A DNA stretch of 64,000 bases from an uncultured Dysgonomonadaceae bacterium (GTDB lineage: Bacteria; Bacteroidota; Bacteroidia; Bacteroidales; Dysgonomonadaceae). Of the stretch, positions 3,959 to 38,890 are shown piece by piece. A program made the translations under genes and the position numbers. The stretch covers positions 6,815-70,814 of the forward strand of contig CAZXGV010000001.1 in the NCBI GenBank assembly GCA_964640575.1, written 5' to 3'. Positions within the stretch are counted from its first letter, which is position 1, and every line of letters starts with the position of its first letter. Under the pieces are notes generated by a model. It saw nothing but the letters and a program-made list of their open reading frames with translations, was not told where the DNA came from and searched no databases.

Positions 3959-5099
3959 AACTCCTATTCATTTGGCAGGTATATACATACATGTTCCTTT
4001 TTGCAAATCGCGTTGCATCTATTGCGACTACTTCACTTCAACCAATGAAGCCGAGATGGACAAATTAGTCCAAGCTCTCTGTAGAGAAATACTTTGTAGA
4101 AAGGATGAGTTGGCGAATGATAAAATAAAAACAATCTATTTTGGAGGAGGAACACCCTCACGTTTGCAGCAAAGTCATTTCGACCTCATATTTGATACTA
4201 TCCATGCCAATTATACTTTAGATACAGAGATAGAAATAACAATTGAAACAAATCCCGATGATTTATCACATGAATATGTAGATATGCTTCGGGGTTTACC
4301 TTTCAATAGAATAAGCATTGGAATTCAAAGTTTTAATGATCGTGAATTAAAATTCCTTAGCCGCAGACATAATGCTGCTAGAGCTAAGGAGGCTGTCAAA
4401 TATTGTCAAGATAAGGGCTTCAATAATATAAATATCGATTTAATGTATGGTTTGCCAAAGCAAACTGTAGTTATTTGGGAACACAGCCTGCAAGAAGCAC
4501 TTGAATTGGATATTCAGCACATATCAGCATATCATTTAATATATGAAGATAAAACACGACTATACTCTTTATTACAAGCAGGGAAAGTAAATCCACTTGA
4601 TGAGGACAGCAGCTTGGAGATGTTCGAAATACTTATCAATACTCTAACTCAAGCTGGTTTTGTGCATTACGAAGTTTCAAACTTTGCAAAGCCTGGACTC
4701 ATATCACAACACAACTCGTCTTATTGGACAGGTGAAAAGTATTTGGGTTTTGGTCCTGCTGCACATTCATTTGACGGTGAACATCGATGGTGGAATGTGT
4801 CATCCTTGCCGAAGTATATAAAAGGTGTCAATAGCTCGAAGCCTGATATCGAAATGGAAGAGATAGATATTACAACAAAATATAATGAGTATGTTATAAC
4901 AGGTTTGCGCACAATGTGGGGAGTCAACTCAGAAGAACTGAAGATAAAATTCGGAGACGAACTATATGACTATTTCGCAAAGAACGCTCAGAAATATTTC
5001 AACCTCAATTATCTGAAGAAAAAGGACTCCAATGTTACTCTTACGAACAAAGGGGTATTTATATCGGATGGAATTGTAAGTGACTTAATGAAGGTTTAG
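3927..5099 (+). CDS. hemW: radical SAM HemN-like protein (HemW-type heme chaperone / coproporphyrinogen III oxidase-like)
   Basis: The CxxxCxxC radical SAM motif is IYIHVPFCKSRCIYCDY, followed by GGGTPS and a HemN C-terminal-like domain. It overlaps the preceding gene by 32 nt. Confidence 0.85.
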   Translation: MHIINLPIKSKTPIHLAGIYIHVPFCKSRCIYCDYFTSTNEAEMDKLVQALCREILCRKDELANDKIKTIYFGGGTPSRLQQSHFDLIFDTIHANYTLDTEIEITIETNPDDLSHEYVDMLRGLPFNRISIGIQSFNDRELKFLSRRHNAARAKEAVKYCQDKGFNNINIDLMYGLPKQTVVIWEHSLQEALELDIQHISAYHLIYEDKTRLYSLLQAGKVNPLDEDSSLEMFEILINTLTQAGFVHYEVSNFAKPGLISQHNSSYWTGEKYLGFGPAAHSFDGEHRWWNVSSLPKYIKGVNSSKPDIEMEEIDITTKYNEYVITGLRTMWGVNSEELKIKFGDELYDYFAKNAQKYFNLNYLKKKDSNVTLTNKGVFISDGIVSDLMKV

Positions 5100-7315
5100 T
5101 TGTTAAGATTAACAGATATTCCTAATTTAAGCAACATGGGATTATGTGGATAGTCGGGCAGTGAGAAATAATTAGGCTTCATCACTAACTCAGCTATGTT
5201 GTACATCATCACAAAAAATCTAGTTTGTTTTAAATGCATGTTTGCATATCCCGTAACTATGGGATAGTTTCCAATCTTCTTCGACCGTTGATTATAAAAC
5301 TGCAACAAAGCAGCCTCATACCCTGGCGAGTAATACTTTGTATGAAAGTGTGCATCTAGTCCTAATTGCAATGTTAACTCATCGGCAATTTTAGTTCTTA
5401 AAAACATATTTGAATAAGCACTTAAAATAGGGACAGGGATTGCATGTTTATTGCTCGATGTTTGATATACAACAGAGTTGTTCCAATTGAATATTCCAGC
5501 TTTAAAAAACTGATCAAGTCGGGCAGAAACTATTTGAATATTATCACTTTCCTGAAAAGGCAGTTTGTTTTGATCAAAATATATAAAGTTTTGTATGTTT
5601 TCCACCCCTGCGCTTAGTGTTGTGTTAGTAAAAGGGATAAACATTTTCCCACCAACATATACCCTTCTTATGTCATTAAAGTCATTGTTCCACCAGAAGT
5701 ATTTAGAGTGATACTGTTGCTCTAAAAACTTTGGCTTTAAATTTTTGATATATGCCTGTCCACTCAAAGTTGTTTCCTTACCTGCAATATCTATCGTGGT
5801 TTCCACATCTCCTTCCAGTCTGAACTCTCCAATATTGTCGCCCAATACACCTAAATCTGCTTTTGCATTGAAGCGAAGATATTTGCCTTGCTGTTTGCTC
5901 AAAACACCACCGATTGTCGTTGCCTGTTCTCTATGTTTATAGCGTCCCTCACCAATTGTGTCAAGCAAATTAAAGTTACGTGTCTCGTGTTCAATAAGGA
6001 CTGTGAGACCAAATTTCACCCAATCTCTAAATCCTTCACGCATCGAAAGTGCCAAAGTATTTTTTAATGTGCTAAATCGAGTACTATCGTCTGGTGCTGA
6101 ACTGTAATATCTATTTTTATATAGCGTGTCAATTCTTTGAACTGCGTTTCCATTGGGTAGCGTGACACGAGCTGTATCATATGAAAGAAATCTTCTGTAC
6201 TGCTGTTTGAGTTGCGAAGTTAATATTACACTGGCTACTGGAACAAACTCCTTATAGCCTGGCTCAAGGCTTGGTTCGTTGTATCCCAAGTTATATCGAG
6301 CTGATAGATAAAACTGATCAGCTTTCATCCTATTCCATGTATTTTTGAATCGAGTGGGAATATCATGCGAATTAAAGCTTCGATCAATTAGTTCAGGATT
6401 TGTTATAAATGTTGAATCGGAGATTCCTCCGTTTTCAAAATTTGTCGCTGATAATTGTGAAATATAACCGTGTACTTCAATACGGTCACTTATATAATTT
6501 CCATAAGCTGTAAAATTATTTTGTTTTGCAGCCTGCGATGCATAAAACCCTTTGGCATTAATGAAATCAAGATCAAATCCAAAATTTAAATGACGATTGA
6601 AGTTCATTGTAAATCGTGTTTCAAATCGTTCTTCTTTATTAATGTTGCTTCCGGCGCGTTGATAGTTTATACGAGTGTAAGGTATACGAGTGTTGAAGAA
6701 TAGCTGTTTTTCAACATTCTTGTGATAAAGGTGATATGGGTCGTAAAACATAAAATGGCTGCCTTCTCCTCGCTCAAAGAAAAGTTTGGATATTGCAGGC
6801 GACCCTAAATTTCCGAGATATCCCATTGCTACAGATCCTCCATCAGATAAAGTTGTATGCTGATAGTTGTATAAAGTAGTGTCAGGTTTGGCTGTGTATC
6901 TTTCTCCAGTTCGTTCATCAATTTTCCATATATCAAAACGAGTATATTCTTTTAATGAGTCAATAGCTAATGGAGCGGGAACTGGTGGTCTAGCAGTCAC
7001 CGAGTCAGTGAGAAATGAGTCGGCGGTTAACGAATCAGTAACCAATGAGTCGACAGCTAATGAGTCAGTAATTAATGAATCGACACTTAATGAGTCAGTA
7101 ATTAGTGAGTCAAGAGCTAATGAATCGACAGCCAAAGAATCTATCTTTTCAGATATCAATGTTTGGCTCATTTTTGCTCGCCTCTTAATGATATCCAAAG
7201 AATCTTTCTCTGTTGTAATCAATGAAGAATCGGGCATGATGATATGCGCATGTTGAGCAACCGATAAAGTCGCAAAGAGACTTAATAGACACAGTATATA
7301 CAGTTTTCCTTTCAT
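5096..7315 (-). CDS. outer-membrane putative porin-family beta-barrel protein with an N-terminal DSL pentapeptide repeat tract
   Basis: ORF 5096..7345. The likely start is MKGKLYILCLLSLFATLSVAQ (signal peptide, 7315). The C-terminal ~600 aa are rich in alternating aromatic and polar beta-strand pattern and end in ...LLKLGISVNLNN. This resembles the Bacteroidota putative-porin family. The family call is from memory only. Confidence 0.6.
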   Translation of the reverse strand: MKGKLYILCLLSLFATLSVAQHAHIIMPDSSLITTEKDSLDIIKRRAKMSQTLISEKIDSLAVDSLALDSLITDSLSVDSLITDSLAVDSLVTDSLTADSFLTDSVTARPPVPAPLAIDSLKEYTRFDIWKIDERTGERYTAKPDTTLYNYQHTTLSDGGSVAMGYLGNLGSPAISKLFFERGEGSHFMFYDPYHLYHKNVEKQLFFNTRIPYTRINYQRAGSNINKEERFETRFTMNFNRHLNFGFDLDFINAKGFYASQAAKQNNFTAYGNYISDRIEVHGYISQLSATNFENGGISDSTFITNPELIDRSFNSHDIPTRFKNTWNRMKADQFYLSARYNLGYNEPSLEPGYKEFVPVASVILTSQLKQQYRRFLSYDTARVTLPNGNAVQRIDTLYKNRYYSSAPDDSTRFSTLKNTLALSMREGFRDWVKFGLTVLIEHETRNFNLLDTIGEGRYKHREQATTIGGVLSKQQGKYLRFNAKADLGVLGDNIGEFRLEGDVETTIDIAGKETTLSGQAYIKNLKPKFLEQQYHSKYFWWNNDFNDIRRVYVGGKMFIPFTNTTLSAGVENIQNFIYFDQNKLPFQESDNIQIVSARLDQFFKAGIFNWNNSVVYQTSSNKHAIPVPILSAYSNMFLRTKIADELTLQLGLDAHFHTKYYSPGYEAALLQFYNQRSKKIGNYPIVTGYANMHLKQTRFFVMMYNIAELVMKPNYFSLPDYPHNPMLLKLGISVNLNN
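6995..7141 (-). repeat. about 10 tandem 15-nt repeats encoding (x)DSL(x) pentapeptides
   Basis: The protein segment is DSLAVDSLALDSLITDSLSVDSLITDSLAVDSLVTDSLTADSFLTDSVT. The plus-strand DNA shows reiterated aatgagtcagtaat-like units. Confidence 0.85.
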
Positions 7316-7595
7316 CGAATGCAAACTTACATAAAAAAAAGTCATTCATTTCTATGTTACTGTAATTTTATGCCGTTTTTCATAATATTTAGGTGTTACT
7401 GACTCTTTTATTTTCTCTAAAAATTAGTTTTAATAATTGATTGTTTGGTTGAGTTAATAGTGATTTTTGATTTTCTAGTGAGGTTTTATTTGCATATCTT
7501 TGCTTATGAGTCATGGCTTTAAGATTTTAGTTACATTTTAGCCGTGTAAATGAATATAAAGTGTTAATTATTTCTTTTCTAGTTATTATAATAAC

Positions 7596-31558: not shown

Positions 31559-33418
31559 TTATGCCTCTTTTTCAATAATGTTTATAAATTCTTCCACTAA
31601 TCGCCACACTAAGAATGGTTGTCCAGTAATGCGATTCAATTTGTGAATGGTGAGCCCCTTTATTTTGCTCTCAAGATAATTGGCGAATTGCCCCAAGTTT
31701 TGTTCTGCCACTATAATGCGAGAATACCGCTTCAACACTTCCTCAGTGTTTTTAGGCAAGGGAGATATAAATTTGAATTGAGTGAATGCAACTTTATAGT
31801 TCTGTTGTTTCACCTCACGATAAGCTTCGAGCAGATGACCAAATGTGCCACCCCAACCCACAATAAGCGTATCTGCATCATCGTCACCTATGACCTCAAG
31901 CTCGGGGACGTAGTTTGCAATTCTATCAATTTTTGCTTGGCGGGTTTCTACCATCAACTGATGATTTTCTCCATCCGACGAAATCACTCCTGTTTCGTAA
32001 TCCTTTTCTAATCCTCCCACTCTGTGGGCATAGTCAGCCATTCCGGGGAATGCCCAATACCTTGCTTTTGTTTCTTCGTTACGTGTATAGGGTGTCCACT
32101 CTTTGTCGCCCTTGTAATTTTCTACATAGTTAGGTTTTATTTCAGGGTACTCATCCATCTTCGGTATCTTCCACGAAGAAGAACCATTAGCAATATATCC
32201 ATCTGTCAATAAGACCACAGGTGTCATGTGTTCTAATGCTAATTTGCAAGCCCAAAAAGCACTATCGAAACAATCGGTGGGCGAGAGTGCGGCAATAACT
32301 ACTGCGGGACTTTCGCCGTTGCGACCATAGAGTGCCTGATTCAAATCAGATTGTTCGCTTTTTGTGGGCAATCCTGTTGACGGTCCACCTCGCTGAACAT
32401 CGATTACTACCAAAGGTAGCTCTGTCATAACAGCCAATCCAAGTGCCTCTCCTTTAAGAGCCAGTCCTGGTCCTGAAGTTGTGGTGACTCCCAAGTGTCC
32501 CACAAAGCTTGCACCAAGTGCAGTACAAATACCCGCAATTTCGTCTTCCATTTGAAGAGCCTTTATTCCAAAGTCTTTTCGTTTTGCGAGTTCGTGCAAG
32601 ATATCAGTGGCAGGTGTTATTGGATAGGTACCGAGTAGAAGCTCAACATTAGCTTTTTCAGCAGCAGCAATCAATCCGTAAGAGGTTGCCAAGTTGCCAT
32701 TAATGTCGGTATAGAAACCTTTGTCGAGTTCCAATGCTTCAATTCTGTAGGTCGAGACTGTCAAGTGTCTATTGTTACCATAGTTATAGCCATCATTCAA
32801 AACCCTTACATTGGCTTCAACAATCTTTGGGTTCTTTACAAATTTCTCTGCCAGCAACTTGTCTGCAATTTCTATCGGTCGGTTAAATAGCCAACAAACC
32901 AATCCTAAAGCAAACATGTTTTTGCTACGCAACATAGTTTTGTTGTCCAGTCCCATATCTTTCAAGCTATCTTTTGTCATCGATGTGATGGGAACAGGCA
33001 CGAGCTGTAGATGTGGCATCTCTAGTTCTTCAAAAGGATTTTCAGTGGCGAACAGCGCTTTCTCCAGGTCTCTTTTATTAAAAGAATCGGTATCGAAAAT
33101 AACGATAGAGTCTTTTCTGAGGTGATGAGCATTCACCTTCAATGCTGCCGGATTCATAGCAATCAGCACATCCGTTAAGTCGCCCGATGTGTGAATGTTT
33201 TTAGAACCAATGCGAACTTGAAACCCTGAAACACCATTCAGTGTTCCTTGGGGTGCTCTAATCTCTGAGGGATAATCGGGAAAAGTTGCTATTTCATTTC
33301 CGAAGATTGCAGAGAGAGTCGAAAATAGTGTGCCGGTAAGTTGCATCCCATCCCCCGAGTCGCCGGACAATCTAATTGTTACTTGATTTAAATCTTTGAC
33401 TACAGTTGTTTTATCCAT
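31559..33418 (-). CDS. korA: 2-oxoglutarate/2-oxoacid:ferredoxin oxidoreductase, alpha subunit
   Basis: 619 aa. The N-terminal gamma-like domain has GDSGDGMQLTG and the pyrimidine-binding domain has YPITPATDILH..TTTSGPGLALK. Its stop lies 3 nt before korB. Confidence 0.88.
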   Translation of the reverse strand: MDKTTVVKDLNQVTIRLSGDSGDGMQLTGTLFSTLSAIFGNEIATFPDYPSEIRAPQGTLNGVSGFQVRIGSKNIHTSGDLTDVLIAMNPAALKVNAHHLRKDSIVIFDTDSFNKRDLEKALFATENPFEELEMPHLQLVPVPITSMTKDSLKDMGLDNKTMLRSKNMFALGLVCWLFNRPIEIADKLLAEKFVKNPKIVEANVRVLNDGYNYGNNRHLTVSTYRIEALELDKGFYTDINGNLATSYGLIAAAEKANVELLLGTYPITPATDILHELAKRKDFGIKALQMEDEIAGICTALGASFVGHLGVTTTSGPGLALKGEALGLAVMTELPLVVIDVQRGGPSTGLPTKSEQSDLNQALYGRNGESPAVVIAALSPTDCFDSAFWACKLALEHMTPVVLLTDGYIANGSSSWKIPKMDEYPEIKPNYVENYKGDKEWTPYTRNEETKARYWAFPGMADYAHRVGGLEKDYETGVISSDGENHQLMVETRQAKIDRIANYVPELEVIGDDDADTLIVGWGGTFGHLLEAYREVKQQNYKVAFTQFKFISPLPKNTEEVLKRYSRIIVAEQNLGQFANYLESKIKGLTIHKLNRITGQPFLVWRLVEEFINIIEKEA

Positions 33419-36780: not shown

Positions 36781-37512
36781 CTACATCGATTCATCATCCT
36801 TTTTTCTCATTCGCTGCTGTACCTTTTCCACATATTTTTGCATCAGTGTGTTCAGAAGTAGTTTTATTTCTTCATATTTCTCCTCTCCCTCCACAATGGC
36901 TAACGCATTTATTAATTCCATCAATTCCAAAAAATCTTTTTGAGCATCCATTCGTGCACTTTTTGTTACACCTGGCACAAAATTGGCTCTAAATTTGTTG
37001 CGAGCATCTAGTTCATCTAAAAAAACCGAGTTGTTCATTTCCAAAGCTTGCACAGCATCGGTCAGGTTGAGGGTGGCTATGTGTTGTTTTGGCAAGTTTC
37101 TCGATAATTCTTGCAATAGATTGATGATGATTGCCGTTTTGCTGTCTTGGGGTTTACGAGCTATTTCTCGACCACTTCCATACGATTTGAAAATAGTGAG
37201 TAAATAGTTGGAAGCATCTTGCTTTTCGGGGGAGTATTTGTAATTTTTGTAAGTATGCAACACCTTATACATAGTGCGAATGGCATAATTGCATTCCTTT
37301 TCCGCTTCAATCAATTGATTAATGTCGGGACGTCGCTCTTGCACAATCTCTATGTCATAAATCTCGAATGATGCATGTGTTTGCGATAGCTTTTCGATGA
37401 AAGAATCGGGCATATTTGCCGACTTTTCTTCCATTAACGACAATGCAGCCGCTGTCAGTTGGAAAAACTCCCACCGATTGAGTCGTTCAAGGGTGTACTG
37501 GGGTATATTCAT
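36781..37512 (-). CDS. hypothetical, predicted all-helical cytoplasmic protein (243 aa)
   Basis: ORF 36781..37548 with the likely start at MNIPQYTLERLNRWEFFQL (37512), 34 nt downstream of a -7 box. There is no signal peptide or TM segment. I cannot confidently name a family. Confidence 0.65.
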   Translation of the reverse strand: MNIPQYTLERLNRWEFFQLTAAALSLMEEKSANMPDSFIEKLSQTHASFEIYDIEIVQERRPDINQLIEAEKECNYAIRTMYKVLHTYKNYKYSPEKQDASNYLLTIFKSYGSGREIARKPQDSKTAIIINLLQELSRNLPKQHIATLNLTDAVQALEMNNSVFLDELDARNKFRANFVPGVTKSARMDAQKDFLELMELINALAIVEGEEKYEEIKLLLNTLMQKYVEKVQQRMRKKDDESM

Positions 37513-37545
37513 GTCATAGTTGTTTTGAAATGTATGAATCTGACA

Positions 37546-37553
37546 CAAATATA
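37546..37553 (-). promoter_or_regulatory. candidate -7 promoter box for the 243-aa hypothetical gene
   Basis: The plus strand reads CAAATATA, which is TATATTTG on the minus strand (TAnnTTTG). A CAAA (TTTG on the minus strand) sits at about 37578-37581 in the expected -33 position. It overlaps the palindrome TGTGACA-N6-TGTCACA (37573-37592). Confidence 0.4.
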
Positions 37554-37598
37554 ACCATTAATTTAGAAAGAATGTGACAAAACTGTGTCACATTGCAC

Positions 37599-37910
37599 CT
37601 TTGTCACGCGACAAAGCACCATTGTGCAATAACATTACAACTTTGTCACGCGACAAAGCAGTGTTGCAACTTCATATTACACCTTTGTCACCTGACAAAG
37701 TAGTGTTCTGCTATAATAATATGCCTTTGTCACCTGACAAAGTAGTGTTGTGCTCTAACATCATGCTTTTGTCACCTGACAAAGCAGTGTTGTGATTCAA
37801 CATTATTGCTTTGCCACCTGACAAAGTATGCTTGCGATATAACATTGCTCCTTTGTCATCTGTCAAAGCTACAATGTGCTATCACAACGGTGTAATGTCA
37901 ACTGGCAGAG
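37599..37910. repeat. tandem array of 7 good copies plus 1 degenerate copy of a 42-bp unit, each carrying the 18-bp palindrome CTTTGTCAC(C/G)(T/C)GACAAAG
   Basis: The palindromes start at 37599, 37641, 37683, 37725, 37767, 37809 and 37851, with a degenerate copy (13/18) at 37893. The period is exactly 42 bp every time. The stems CTTTGTC and GACAAAG are almost invariant, while the 24-nt linkers are only loosely similar (AGTGTTG..AACAT). Confidence 0.95.
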
Positions 37911-38110
37911 CATCTAAATTGAACAGTATTGGTTGTTTTCTGCGTTAAAATAGTGCATTGTGTCAATATGTTGCTTTTGCCCAGCGCTTTTTAAGCATTA
38001 TGTTGAGAAGTAAGTCATCAATTTTGATTTGGCGAGCGGGCATTTGTGAAAGCGAAAGCAGAAAAGAGCAATCAATGGTACTCGTTTTACAATTGGGCTT
38101 CCCCCACCAT

Positions 38111-38890
38111 CTAATTCCTCTCACTTGCTCTTACTTTGTTCGCCTTTTTGAGTTTTGCAAATTCATCTTTTGCTTTTTTCAATTGTTTCGAAAAGGCTTT
38201 GTCAGCATGCAGTCTTGCCACCACGGCACTTGCCACAAGACGGGCAGCATCCACATCACTCTGATAGTGGTATCCGCAGATTACTCTACTTTGCCCTATT
38301 TCGAATCCGCGTTCCAATATTTCATTCTGTCTGTCTGGGTTTATTTCGCACAACACGAGAGCCGAAGCCCAGCCAATGGAAGTGTGTCCAGAAGGGTAGG
38401 AGCCATTGGTAGAAAGTCCTTTTTCGTGATGAGGTGTGCAGGTTGGTTCTTCAAAAAAACTAAACGGGCGAACACGCATATAGTGCTGCTTGGCATCGCG
38501 AGTAGCCAAATCTCCTGCATCTTCAATCATGTTTGTGAGCAATTTGTAAATGTGTGGTGTTTTCTCTTTGGTTATATGTGTGCCAAAAGATTCGGAGAAT
38601 GCTTCCGAAATGCCATTGCCTCCTAGGGAAGCATCGCGTACAGCTTGTTCGCCTCTTGGTGTGTTTCTTATCATTTTGCCCATTTCGTATTGAGCTTTGT
38701 CATACAAAAACAGGATGTCGGTAGGTTGGGGCGGTGGGGGCAATAGGTCTAAGCTATTGGCAACATCTGTGTCTTGTAGATAATATAAATCGGGTCTTGT
38801 TCTTCTGTCTTTTATTTTTTTCTCTTGTGCAGTAGTGCTGAAGGAGATTAGTGTAGAGAGAATGATAACTAATGTAAATCTTATTTTCAT
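38111..38890 (-). CDS. secreted class A (PAP2-type) non-specific acid phosphatase
   Basis: It has a signal peptide and the three PAP2 motifs [13 protein letters not shown] and [14 protein letters not shown]. Confidence 0.88.

Follow-up and report, generated by a model that had tools for sequence, protein, structure and literature searches.

Tandemly repeated sites are known from several well-described systems. The iterons of theta-replicating plasmids are direct, non-palindromic repeats of 17-22 bp beside the rep gene. Operator or centromere arrays are bound by autoregulating ribbon-helix-helix (RHH) proteins in R1 ParR-parC, the omega heptads of pSM19035 and the MetJ metboxes, and the ARG boxes of ArgR are 18-bp palindromes placed 21 bp apart centre to centre, one pair of which overlaps the promoter and is bound by an oligomer. 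The sopC site of the F plasmid contains a 43-bp direct repeat in 12 copies, and SopB binds the 16-bp inverted repeat present in every copy (PMC3177203). Type III toxin-antitoxin (TA) loci carry tandem repeats of 31-62 nt upstream of a same-strand protein gene, and the repeat lengths within their families span 31-62, 40-48 and 39-57 nt (PMC3401426). Here we describe a tandem array of seven 42-bp units found in a 64,000-nt stretch of DNA (the window) from an uncultured Dysgonomonadaceae bacterium (GenBank assembly GCA_964640575.1, contig CAZXGV010000001.1, positions 6,815 to 70,814 of the forward strand). The array precedes a gene of the uncharacterised DUF6261 family and has the appearance of a regulatory DNA element, so far undescribed, that moves together with the gene. 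A preliminary description of the window had drawn attention to its palindromes; as judged by comparing homologous loci, the finding is broader than first seen, a family-wide, promoter-phased palindrome array that accompanies DUF6261 genes in two phyla.

The array core (37599..37868) is flanked by a PAP2 phosphatase gene (38111-38890, minus strand), whose 3' end faces it, and by the start of the DUF6261 gene (36781..37512, minus strand), and consists of seven copies of CTTTGTCA-NN-TGACAAAG with a spacing of exactly 42 bp each. The pattern CTTTGTCACNNGACAAAG, with up to three mismatches allowed, matches both strands at 37599, 37641, 37683, 37725, 37767, 37809 and 37851. Including one stray match at 32719, we found 15 strand-matches to CTTTGTCACNNGACAAAG where 0.89 are expected, a number equalled in 0 of 100 shuffles. 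Tandem Repeats Finder returned a period of 42 and 6.7 copies, a repeat search gave spacings of 42, 42, 42, 42 and 42, and the autocorrelation of the array at lag 42 reaches 0.81. Pattern matching, Tandem Repeats Finder and the spacings thus recover the seven palindromes and the 42-bp period that had been reported, and the whole units are mutually 62-76% identical.

The palindrome of each unit, which we call element A, is found with no mismatch in units 1 (37599..37616) and 2 (37641..37658), both CTTTGTCACGCGACAAAG, and in units 3 (37683..37700) and 4 (37725..37742), both CTTTGTCACCTGACAAAG. It carries one mismatch in unit 5 (TTTTGTCACCTGACAAAG, 37767..37784) and in unit 6 (CTTTGCCACCTGACAAAG, 37809..37826), and two in unit 7 (CTTTGTCATCTGTCAAAG, 37851..37868). 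Unit 1 is nearest to the promoter, upstream of the -7 box discussed below; 54.5 bp separate its dyad from the start of that box. It is also the best-conserved site among orthologues. The relic noted earlier beyond unit 7 is indeed a decayed eighth A element, reading CTCTGCCAGTTGACATTA on the minus strand (37893..37910); it lies in register, 42 bp from unit 7, and keeps 11 of the 16 specified consensus positions. Within the 24-nt linkers lies another dyad, weaker than the first (element B, core TGT-N6-ACA), whose centre is exactly 21 bp from each A dyad. Read from the window sequence, the B core is exact in four of the seven linkers (TGTGCAATAACA, 37623..37634; TGTGCTCTAACA, 37749..37760; TGTGATTCAACA, 37791..37802; TGTGCTATCACA, 37875..37886) and partial in three, where TGCAACTTCATA (37665..37676) is a weak copy that retains the outer T/A pair alone, TCTGCTATAATA (37707..37718) is a second weak copy and TGCGATATAACA (37833..37844) is a partial one. 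The proposal that selection acts on the palindrome and its phasing is supported; the accompanying view that the linkers have drifted is right only in part, since they hold the second dyad.

A further palindrome, TGTGACA-N6-TGTCACA (37573..37592), covers the -33 region and had been taken to be related to the array. It is present in the window but is not a conserved part of the element: it lies 4 bp out of register with the array (element B), and among the homologous loci, which were traced from protein matches to contigs, labelled L001 and onwards, and printed upstream of the gene in rows of 42, it is broken in the 97%-identical orthologue L001 (TGTGACGCAGTTTTGCTACA) and absent in the more distant L002, L003, L004 and L017. 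The distal edge, at the other end of the array, is marked by a conserved minus-strand TTGACA-N3-TG, of which ATATTGTGACACAATG and GGTTTGACAGTTTGTAAGG are examples. This motif is found ~440-455 nt upstream of the ATG, at about 37950-37967 in the window, with equivalents in L002, L005, L007, L009 and L012, and is present whatever the array's own A sequence.

The adjacent minus-strand gene, with its ATG at 37512 and a product of 243 aa, is present as first described, but it is not the orphan it was called. The protein scores 75 bits against the DUF6261 Pfam profile (PF19775; cut-off 27, E = 8e-21), which places it in the family, and distant array-bearing homologues reach E = 1e-38 to 1e-43 against the same profile. 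DUF6261 comprises 4,023 clusters at 50% identity (E <= 1e-3) and is common among the Fibrobacterota of termite guts and the Bacteroidales of the mouth and gut. The exact window protein is absent from the contig index. The family is nearly absent from viruses, with one weak match among 2.9 million viral contigs, and the sole plasmid-collection match for the protein is a 568-kb Prevotella nigrescens replicon. PADLOC, NCBIfam and PHROGs gave no significant match to DUF6261. The literature offered one irrelevant mention of DUF6261 and no account of its function, nor any 41-bp or 42-bp repeats in Bacteroidetes or Prevotella. The AlphaFold2 model of the protein is all alpha-helical, with a mean pLDDT of 87.

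Arrays of 41-43 bp with a palindromic core are found directly upstream of ~42 of the 44 DUF6261 genes that have sufficient upstream sequence, the two exceptions being L052, where the intergenic region is divergent and 245 bp long, and L044, whose gene start is unclear. Every Dysgonomonadaceae-type locus possesses a 42-bp array of 4-8 units, and the arrays of paralogues within one such genome have no recognisable common unit sequence. Outside this clade, we found 41-bp arrays in the cultured Prevotellaceae Segatella oulorum ATCC 43324 (two loci, 9.7 and 6.8 copies) and Prevotella nigrescens FDAARGOS_1486 (3.6 copies), in many Prevotella-like loci from oral metagenomes (41 bp, with one locus at 42 bp) and in several Fibrobacterota loci (41, 42 or 43 bp). 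In an autocorrelation scan of 270 kb, 34 loci gave a signal at lag 41/42 upstream of DUF6261. The only others came from two repeats away from DUF6261 genes, one in the N-terminal coding region of ftsW and one in L030; the control lags gave nothing comparable. The repeat in ftsW (L009 1970-2286) is an unrelated coding repeat of the PHPTPHTT type with a 42-bp period, at the FtsW N-terminus. Separately, L013 562-640 holds a 42-bp repeat of 1.9 copies with the palindromes TTGTAcccCTACAA and CAAGAAAcTTTtTCTTG ~21 bp apart, upstream of a non-DUF6261 gene resembling one for an outer-membrane protein, so the architecture may serve other genes as well.

The neighbourhoods in which the array and its gene occur vary from locus to locus, with murB/murA in the window and ftsW-murG, hisE or hisD, or lipoprotein genes elsewhere, which argues that array, promoter and gene move as one module. 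The module sits between ftsW and murG, in the cell-division cluster, in L009, L012 and probably L024; together with the murB/murA placement in the window, this may reflect chance or a link to the cell envelope. The number of units, which the preliminary description had proposed to compare among relatives, differs between close ones. The window has seven units and L001 has five, with proteins 97% identical, although both come from short-read assemblies in which a collapse of units is possible. Two loci with identical proteins have 5.2 and 4.4 copies (L053 2224-2446 and L054 2257-2446), and copy number runs from 2.7 to 9.7 within one Prevotella array type. Because the number shifts by whole units, phase is preserved.

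The phase in question is that relative to the promoter. The Bacteroidetes -7 box has the consensus TAnnTTTG (PMC7366714), and a box of this type, TATATTTG, is found on the minus strand at 37546-37553, 41 nt before the ATG, and is invariant among orthologues. In the 16 loci compared, the box between array and gene is the sole consistently placed sense-strand TAnnTTTG within 800 bp upstream; the few matches upstream of the arrays are scattered and no consistently placed -7 box was found there. This position puts the whole array upstream of the core promoter. A -33 TTTG at ~19-21 bp from the -7 box was not found, the nearest TTTG being 24 nt upstream, where orthologues have TTTA. The alternative start codon TTG at 37548, which would give a protein of 255 aa, lies within the -7 box and can be ruled out as the true start. 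A sigma-54 promoter with an enhancer was considered and rejected, as GG-N10-GC occurs in the L015/L042 type only, where the match is also a hairpin, and is absent in the other types and in the window.

In 20 of the 21 Dysgonomonadaceae-type loci, the strongest dyad phase is that of A or B relative to the -7 box, where (box start - dyad) mod 42 is 12 for A (11 in three loci) and 33 for B. This phase is kept also where the box sits 125 bp rather than 42 bp from the ATG, so the array is locked, to within one base, to the promoter rather than the start codon. The lock is shared by at least eight lineages of paralogues, the repeats of which can no longer be aligned. Among orthologues of 57-97% protein identity, the sequence from the proximal A site to the ATG aligns almost gap-free, with one single-base distal gap, and conservation is concentrated in the A site, a TTT and the -7 box. 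When 16 arrays are placed in register with their -7 boxes, the consensus is.T.AcAt.A.t.CTtTg..aCg..gcaAAGC..ta.Tgt.A., from which element A reads CTTTG-N3-CG-N3-CAAAG and element B TGTnA-N2-TnACA. The outer positions are near-invariant (C13 in 16 of 16, G30, T37 and A6 each in 15 of 16) and the inner ones differ by paralogue, a pattern to be expected of a site contacted by protein. The 21-bp dyad spacing turns every site to the same helical face. Taking the -7 box to begin at ~-12 places the A series at about -66 and -108 and the B series at about -45 and -87, with further dyads continuing upstream. The promoter looks like an activator-dependent type with a long, phased upstream binding region.

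With moderate confidence, we read the window array as double-stranded DNA: a row of phased dimer-binding sites that would control the DUF6261 promoter. Each 42-bp unit, four helical turns in length, presents two dyad-symmetric sites, A and B, 21 bp apart, and the spacing of these sites from the sigma-A -7 box that serves DUF6261 is fixed. Cooperative occupation by a protein dimer, or by a dimer of dimers, would build a phased nucleoprotein filament that would touch or wrap RNA polymerase at the promoter and so set DUF6261 expression, while the gain or loss of whole units would alter the number of sites without breaking phase. Protein binding, the sign of regulation and the identity of the binder are what we infer here; we lean towards activation because the sites are upstream of the core promoter and the -33 region is poor. 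Of the options put forward in the preliminary description, a cooperative operator or upstream activating sequence array for a dimeric DNA-binding protein fits best: 20 of 21 related loci keep their array in phase with the -7 box, the two strands fold equally well as RNA, and arm mismatches show no strand bias towards G.U. The statement that no described element has this sequence also holds, as none was found in Rfam, the plasmid collection or the literature.

Among the loci read, no regulator gene accompanies the module and DUF6261 is the only constant partner. The leading candidate for the binder is DUF6261 itself, which might read the array through a variable N-terminal segment, an assignment that we offer tentatively and that draws on the oral Prevotella-type loci. 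These loci have five array types that share an outer GTTAG...CTAAT and differ in their inner sequences, each of which is self-complementary, and their proteins are 92-95% identical. All residues that are fixed within an array type yet different between types are within the first ~16, and across types the first 48 nt of the gene are 65-81% identical, versus 93-99% for the remainder. Concerted evolution is apparent in these oral Prevotella/Segatella-type paralogues (L015, L016, L032-L039, L042, L043, L045, L056, L060 and L061): polymorphisms of the gene body are shuffled among types, while the array, the leader and the first 12-16 codons remain type-specific. Going one step further, and with less assurance again, DUF6261 might represent a new class of array-binding protein, with a private, promoter-phased array, a short hypervariable N-terminus as the reader and a constant helical body that polymerises along one DNA face at one unit per four turns. 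If so, each gene and its own array would form a self-contained module that tunes its own dosage by gaining and losing units; such a module could spread between contexts and phyla, and its paralogues would stay insulated from one another despite conversion of the gene body.

Several observations weigh against a phased array of protein-binding sites. No binding protein was found for the array, and DUF6261 has no recognisable DNA-binding fold: Foldseek against the PDB and a viral library returned nothing at E < 0.1, and a PDB sequence profile search gave no match. The pI of DUF6261 proteins ranges from 4.6 to 9.2, and their basic stretch is limited to a short conserved C-terminal helix. The inner palindrome varies between Prevotella types despite near-identical proteins, and the way N-terminus and array vary together may do no more than show where a tract of gene conversion ends, at about codon 16; conversion that stops there and an N-terminus that matches its array are not mutually exclusive, and the data cannot separate the two. 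Shared ancestry of the modules, as opposed to continuing constraint, may account for part of the phase lock. In the Prevotella-type and Fibrobacterota loci, no canonical promoter or fixed phase could be placed, and their arrays end 30-90 nt before the ATG; in the Prevotella type, for which no canonical -7 box was found, the last dyad is at -44, -59, -79 or -92 from the ATG. Prevotella-type palindromes are, moreover, each followed by a sense-strand T-run, and the mismatches in their arms are nearly all sense-strand G.T, with ~9 of these (beyond one shared position) versus 1 A.C.

The last of these observations bear on the best of the alternatives, one that we regard as unlikely but take seriously, in which the array is transcribed and acts as RNA, either as a string of hairpins bound or processed by DUF6261, in the manner of a type III TA system or as a sponge or scaffold, or as a set of partial terminators that meter read-through. 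T-runs, G.T mismatches and self-complementary inner stems favour an RNA or single-stranded DNA hairpin in the Prevotella type, where the inner stems change between types with self-complementarity kept and proteins still 92-95% identical. The tandem repeats lie directly upstream of a same-strand protein gene, as in type III TA systems; some Prevotella-type loci have a GC-rich hairpin between array and gene; Prevotella-type arrays begin 4-35 nt past the stop codon of the upstream gene; and Prevotella and Fibrobacterota arrays end near the ribosome-binding site. For the window's clade, the argument turns on the promoter: a canonical -7 box stands between array and gene, the array is phase-locked to it, and no consistently placed promoter precedes the array. 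No terminator is found between array and gene (window 37513-37598). Predicted folding is alike for both strands (z = -8.5 each), and among 784 mirrored A-element positions we count 62 G.T, 97 A.C and 222 other non-pairs, so that 28% are neither Watson-Crick nor wobble and the sense strand has no excess of G.T. Thus no strand-specific RNA signal is seen in this clade. The period stays at 41-43 nt across two phyla, compared with the wide range of repeat lengths in type III families, and DUF6261 has no similarity to ToxN, CptN, TenpN or any PADLOC model. Duplex energies between an array and its own translation start region are no better than those across arrays. There is also no Rfam match: Rfam 15 at the gathering score gave none in the window or in nine related loci, and E <= 1 yielded sub-threshold eukaryotic miRNA models alone. 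As for the specific assignment to type III TA, the repeats upstream on the same strand are present, but the upstream promoter, the terminator and a ToxN/AbiQ, CptN or TenpN toxin were not found, and we rejected it.

Less probable still is a purely structural role, in which a repeat length of whole helical turns gives planar curvature, cruciform extrusion or a preferred path for the wrapping of RNA polymerase or general nucleoid proteins, and so stimulates or insulates the promoter with no dedicated sequence-specific protein. Of all features the 41-43-bp period, about four turns, is kept best, whereas the sequence can vary freely; many arrays have an AT-rich element B, and the palindromes could extrude as cruciforms. 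In a wedge-model prediction, the arrays of the window (WIN), L012 and L051 fall in the lowest 2-9% of predicted end-to-end/contour ratios, but predicted static curvature is inconsistent from array to array, running from the 2nd to the 63rd percentile of background. Shape alone would need neither the CTTTG...CAAAG, the TGT...ACA nor the central CG, all of which are near-invariant across otherwise differing arrays, and the promoter-proximal A palindrome is the best conserved among orthologues.

The preliminary description had also likened the array to iterons or to a parC/parS centromere, and a partition or replication site of this kind is now very improbable. The unit length and the single palindrome per unit (element A) are close to those of sopC, and the product of the adjoining gene could be the binder. 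No ParA, ParB, ParR or Rep gene is adjacent in the window or in the related loci read, however, and a genome has several arrays of different sequence in housekeeping chromosomal contexts such as ftsW-murG. The array has no plasmid-collection match and is near-absent in viral contigs, and strict promoter phase is not a property of centromeres. Iterons in particular were rejected, as the units are 42 bp long with palindromic cores, with no rep gene and no plasmid-collection match.

A neutral, selfishly expanding repeat with incidental palindromes, to which the copy-number differences between close relatives and the decay of distal units might point, is hardly credible for an array that is kept upstream of one gene family in two phyla and many paralogues despite full sequence turnover, with a 41-43-bp period free of indels, conserved dyad positions and a phase lock to the -7 box. 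A coding repeat was rejected. The 73-aa open reading frame (ORF) at 37574..37795 (plus strand), whose conservation as a protein had been named in advance as the outcome that would speak against a DNA element, is not conserved and is an artefact of the 14-codon repeat: stops interrupt all six frames of 41-bp arrays, the open frame of 42-bp arrays differs in strand and frame from one locus to another, and no reading frame is kept across homologous arrays, as expected from the earlier claim that the array is not coding. A CRISPR array was likewise rejected, since the 24-nt linkers are mutually homologous and hold a conserved second dyad rather than being unrelated spacers.

A cis-element that accompanies nearly every member of DUF6261 provides a first experimental handle on an uncharacterised family. 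Bacteroidota promoter architecture beyond the -7 box is poorly understood, and an upstream element that keeps single-base register with that box across as much as 340 bp offers a rare natural setting in which to study the geometry of activation. A natural specificity-swap experiment is provided by the Prevotella-type loci, whose five different array types go with near-identical proteins that differ in their N-termini. On a practical level, the arrays mislead gene callers. Spurious ORFs or over-extended starts are called across them in L051 (1785-2504), L055 (1816-2511), L063 (2473) and the window (P0001, 37548), and one of these is a RefSeq record, that of P. nigrescens (L063), where the 41-bp repeat is unannotated and the annotated DUF6261 start (2473) lies inside the array.

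Other repeats and leaders were observed around these genes. Prevotella-type DUF6261 genes carry 48-bp tandem repeats at their 3' ends, in which the final codons and a TTGTTTTAAAACAA hairpin are duplicated (L032 3255-3420, L033 3656-3775, L040 939-1086, L043 1681-1848 and L061 2387-2506). Just upstream of the 41-bp array of P. nigrescens is a 120-bp repeat of 3.3 copies, 98% identical and annotated as a hypothetical protein (L063 1823-2218), and poly-C tracts of 24-81 nt stand just upstream of the arrays in two Fibrobacterota loci (L014 3385-3518 and L051 1982-2004). One Dysgonomonadaceae paralogue group has a leader of ~110 nt (L009, 3884-4003; also L010, L012, L013, L024 and L026) with a conserved TTAACAC and CTGTAAA-ACACAG-TG ~25 nt before the ATG, for which RNAalifold gave no consensus structure. 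Within the window, the neighbours of the module encode PAP2, an RsmI-like/TP_methylase-like protein, His_Phos_2, MurB, MurA and POR, and an unrelated coding tandem repeat with a 15/30-bp period is found at 7002-7132 inside a 749-aa ORF (5096-7345, minus strand).

Set beside the described systems, the array shares with RHH-bound arrays the placing of repeated sites next to or over a promoter, there that of the binder's own gene, on one DNA face and, in the reading proposed here, cooperative binding, and the use of a short N-terminal segment for specificity by RHH proteins would parallel the type-specific N-terminus of DUF6261. RHH units are 7-20 bp long, however, as opposed to 42 bp, and the candidate binder DUF6261 is an all-helical protein of 240 aa in which no RHH domain was detected. 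Like ARG boxes, the array consists of 18-bp dyads two helical turns apart on one face; it differs in its consensus, in having 8-16 sites of two alternating types and in lying entirely upstream of the core promoter. The type III TA systems toxIN, cptIN and tenpIN also have an array just upstream of a same-strand gene, and some Prevotella-type loci share with them a hairpin between the two. Unlike these systems, the loci of the window's clade have a promoter between array and gene and palindromic units without strand bias; the period of the array is near-invariant and its protein is unrelated. The closest layout is that of sopC, which likewise consists of several to a dozen tandem direct repeats of about four turns, each with one protein-sized palindrome that is better conserved than the remainder of the unit. 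Whereas sopC is a plasmid site downstream of sopAB, with a ParB-family binder and a ParA ATPase, the array described here is chromosomal, has no par gene, occurs as several paralogous arrays per genome, contains a second dyad and is phased to a promoter.

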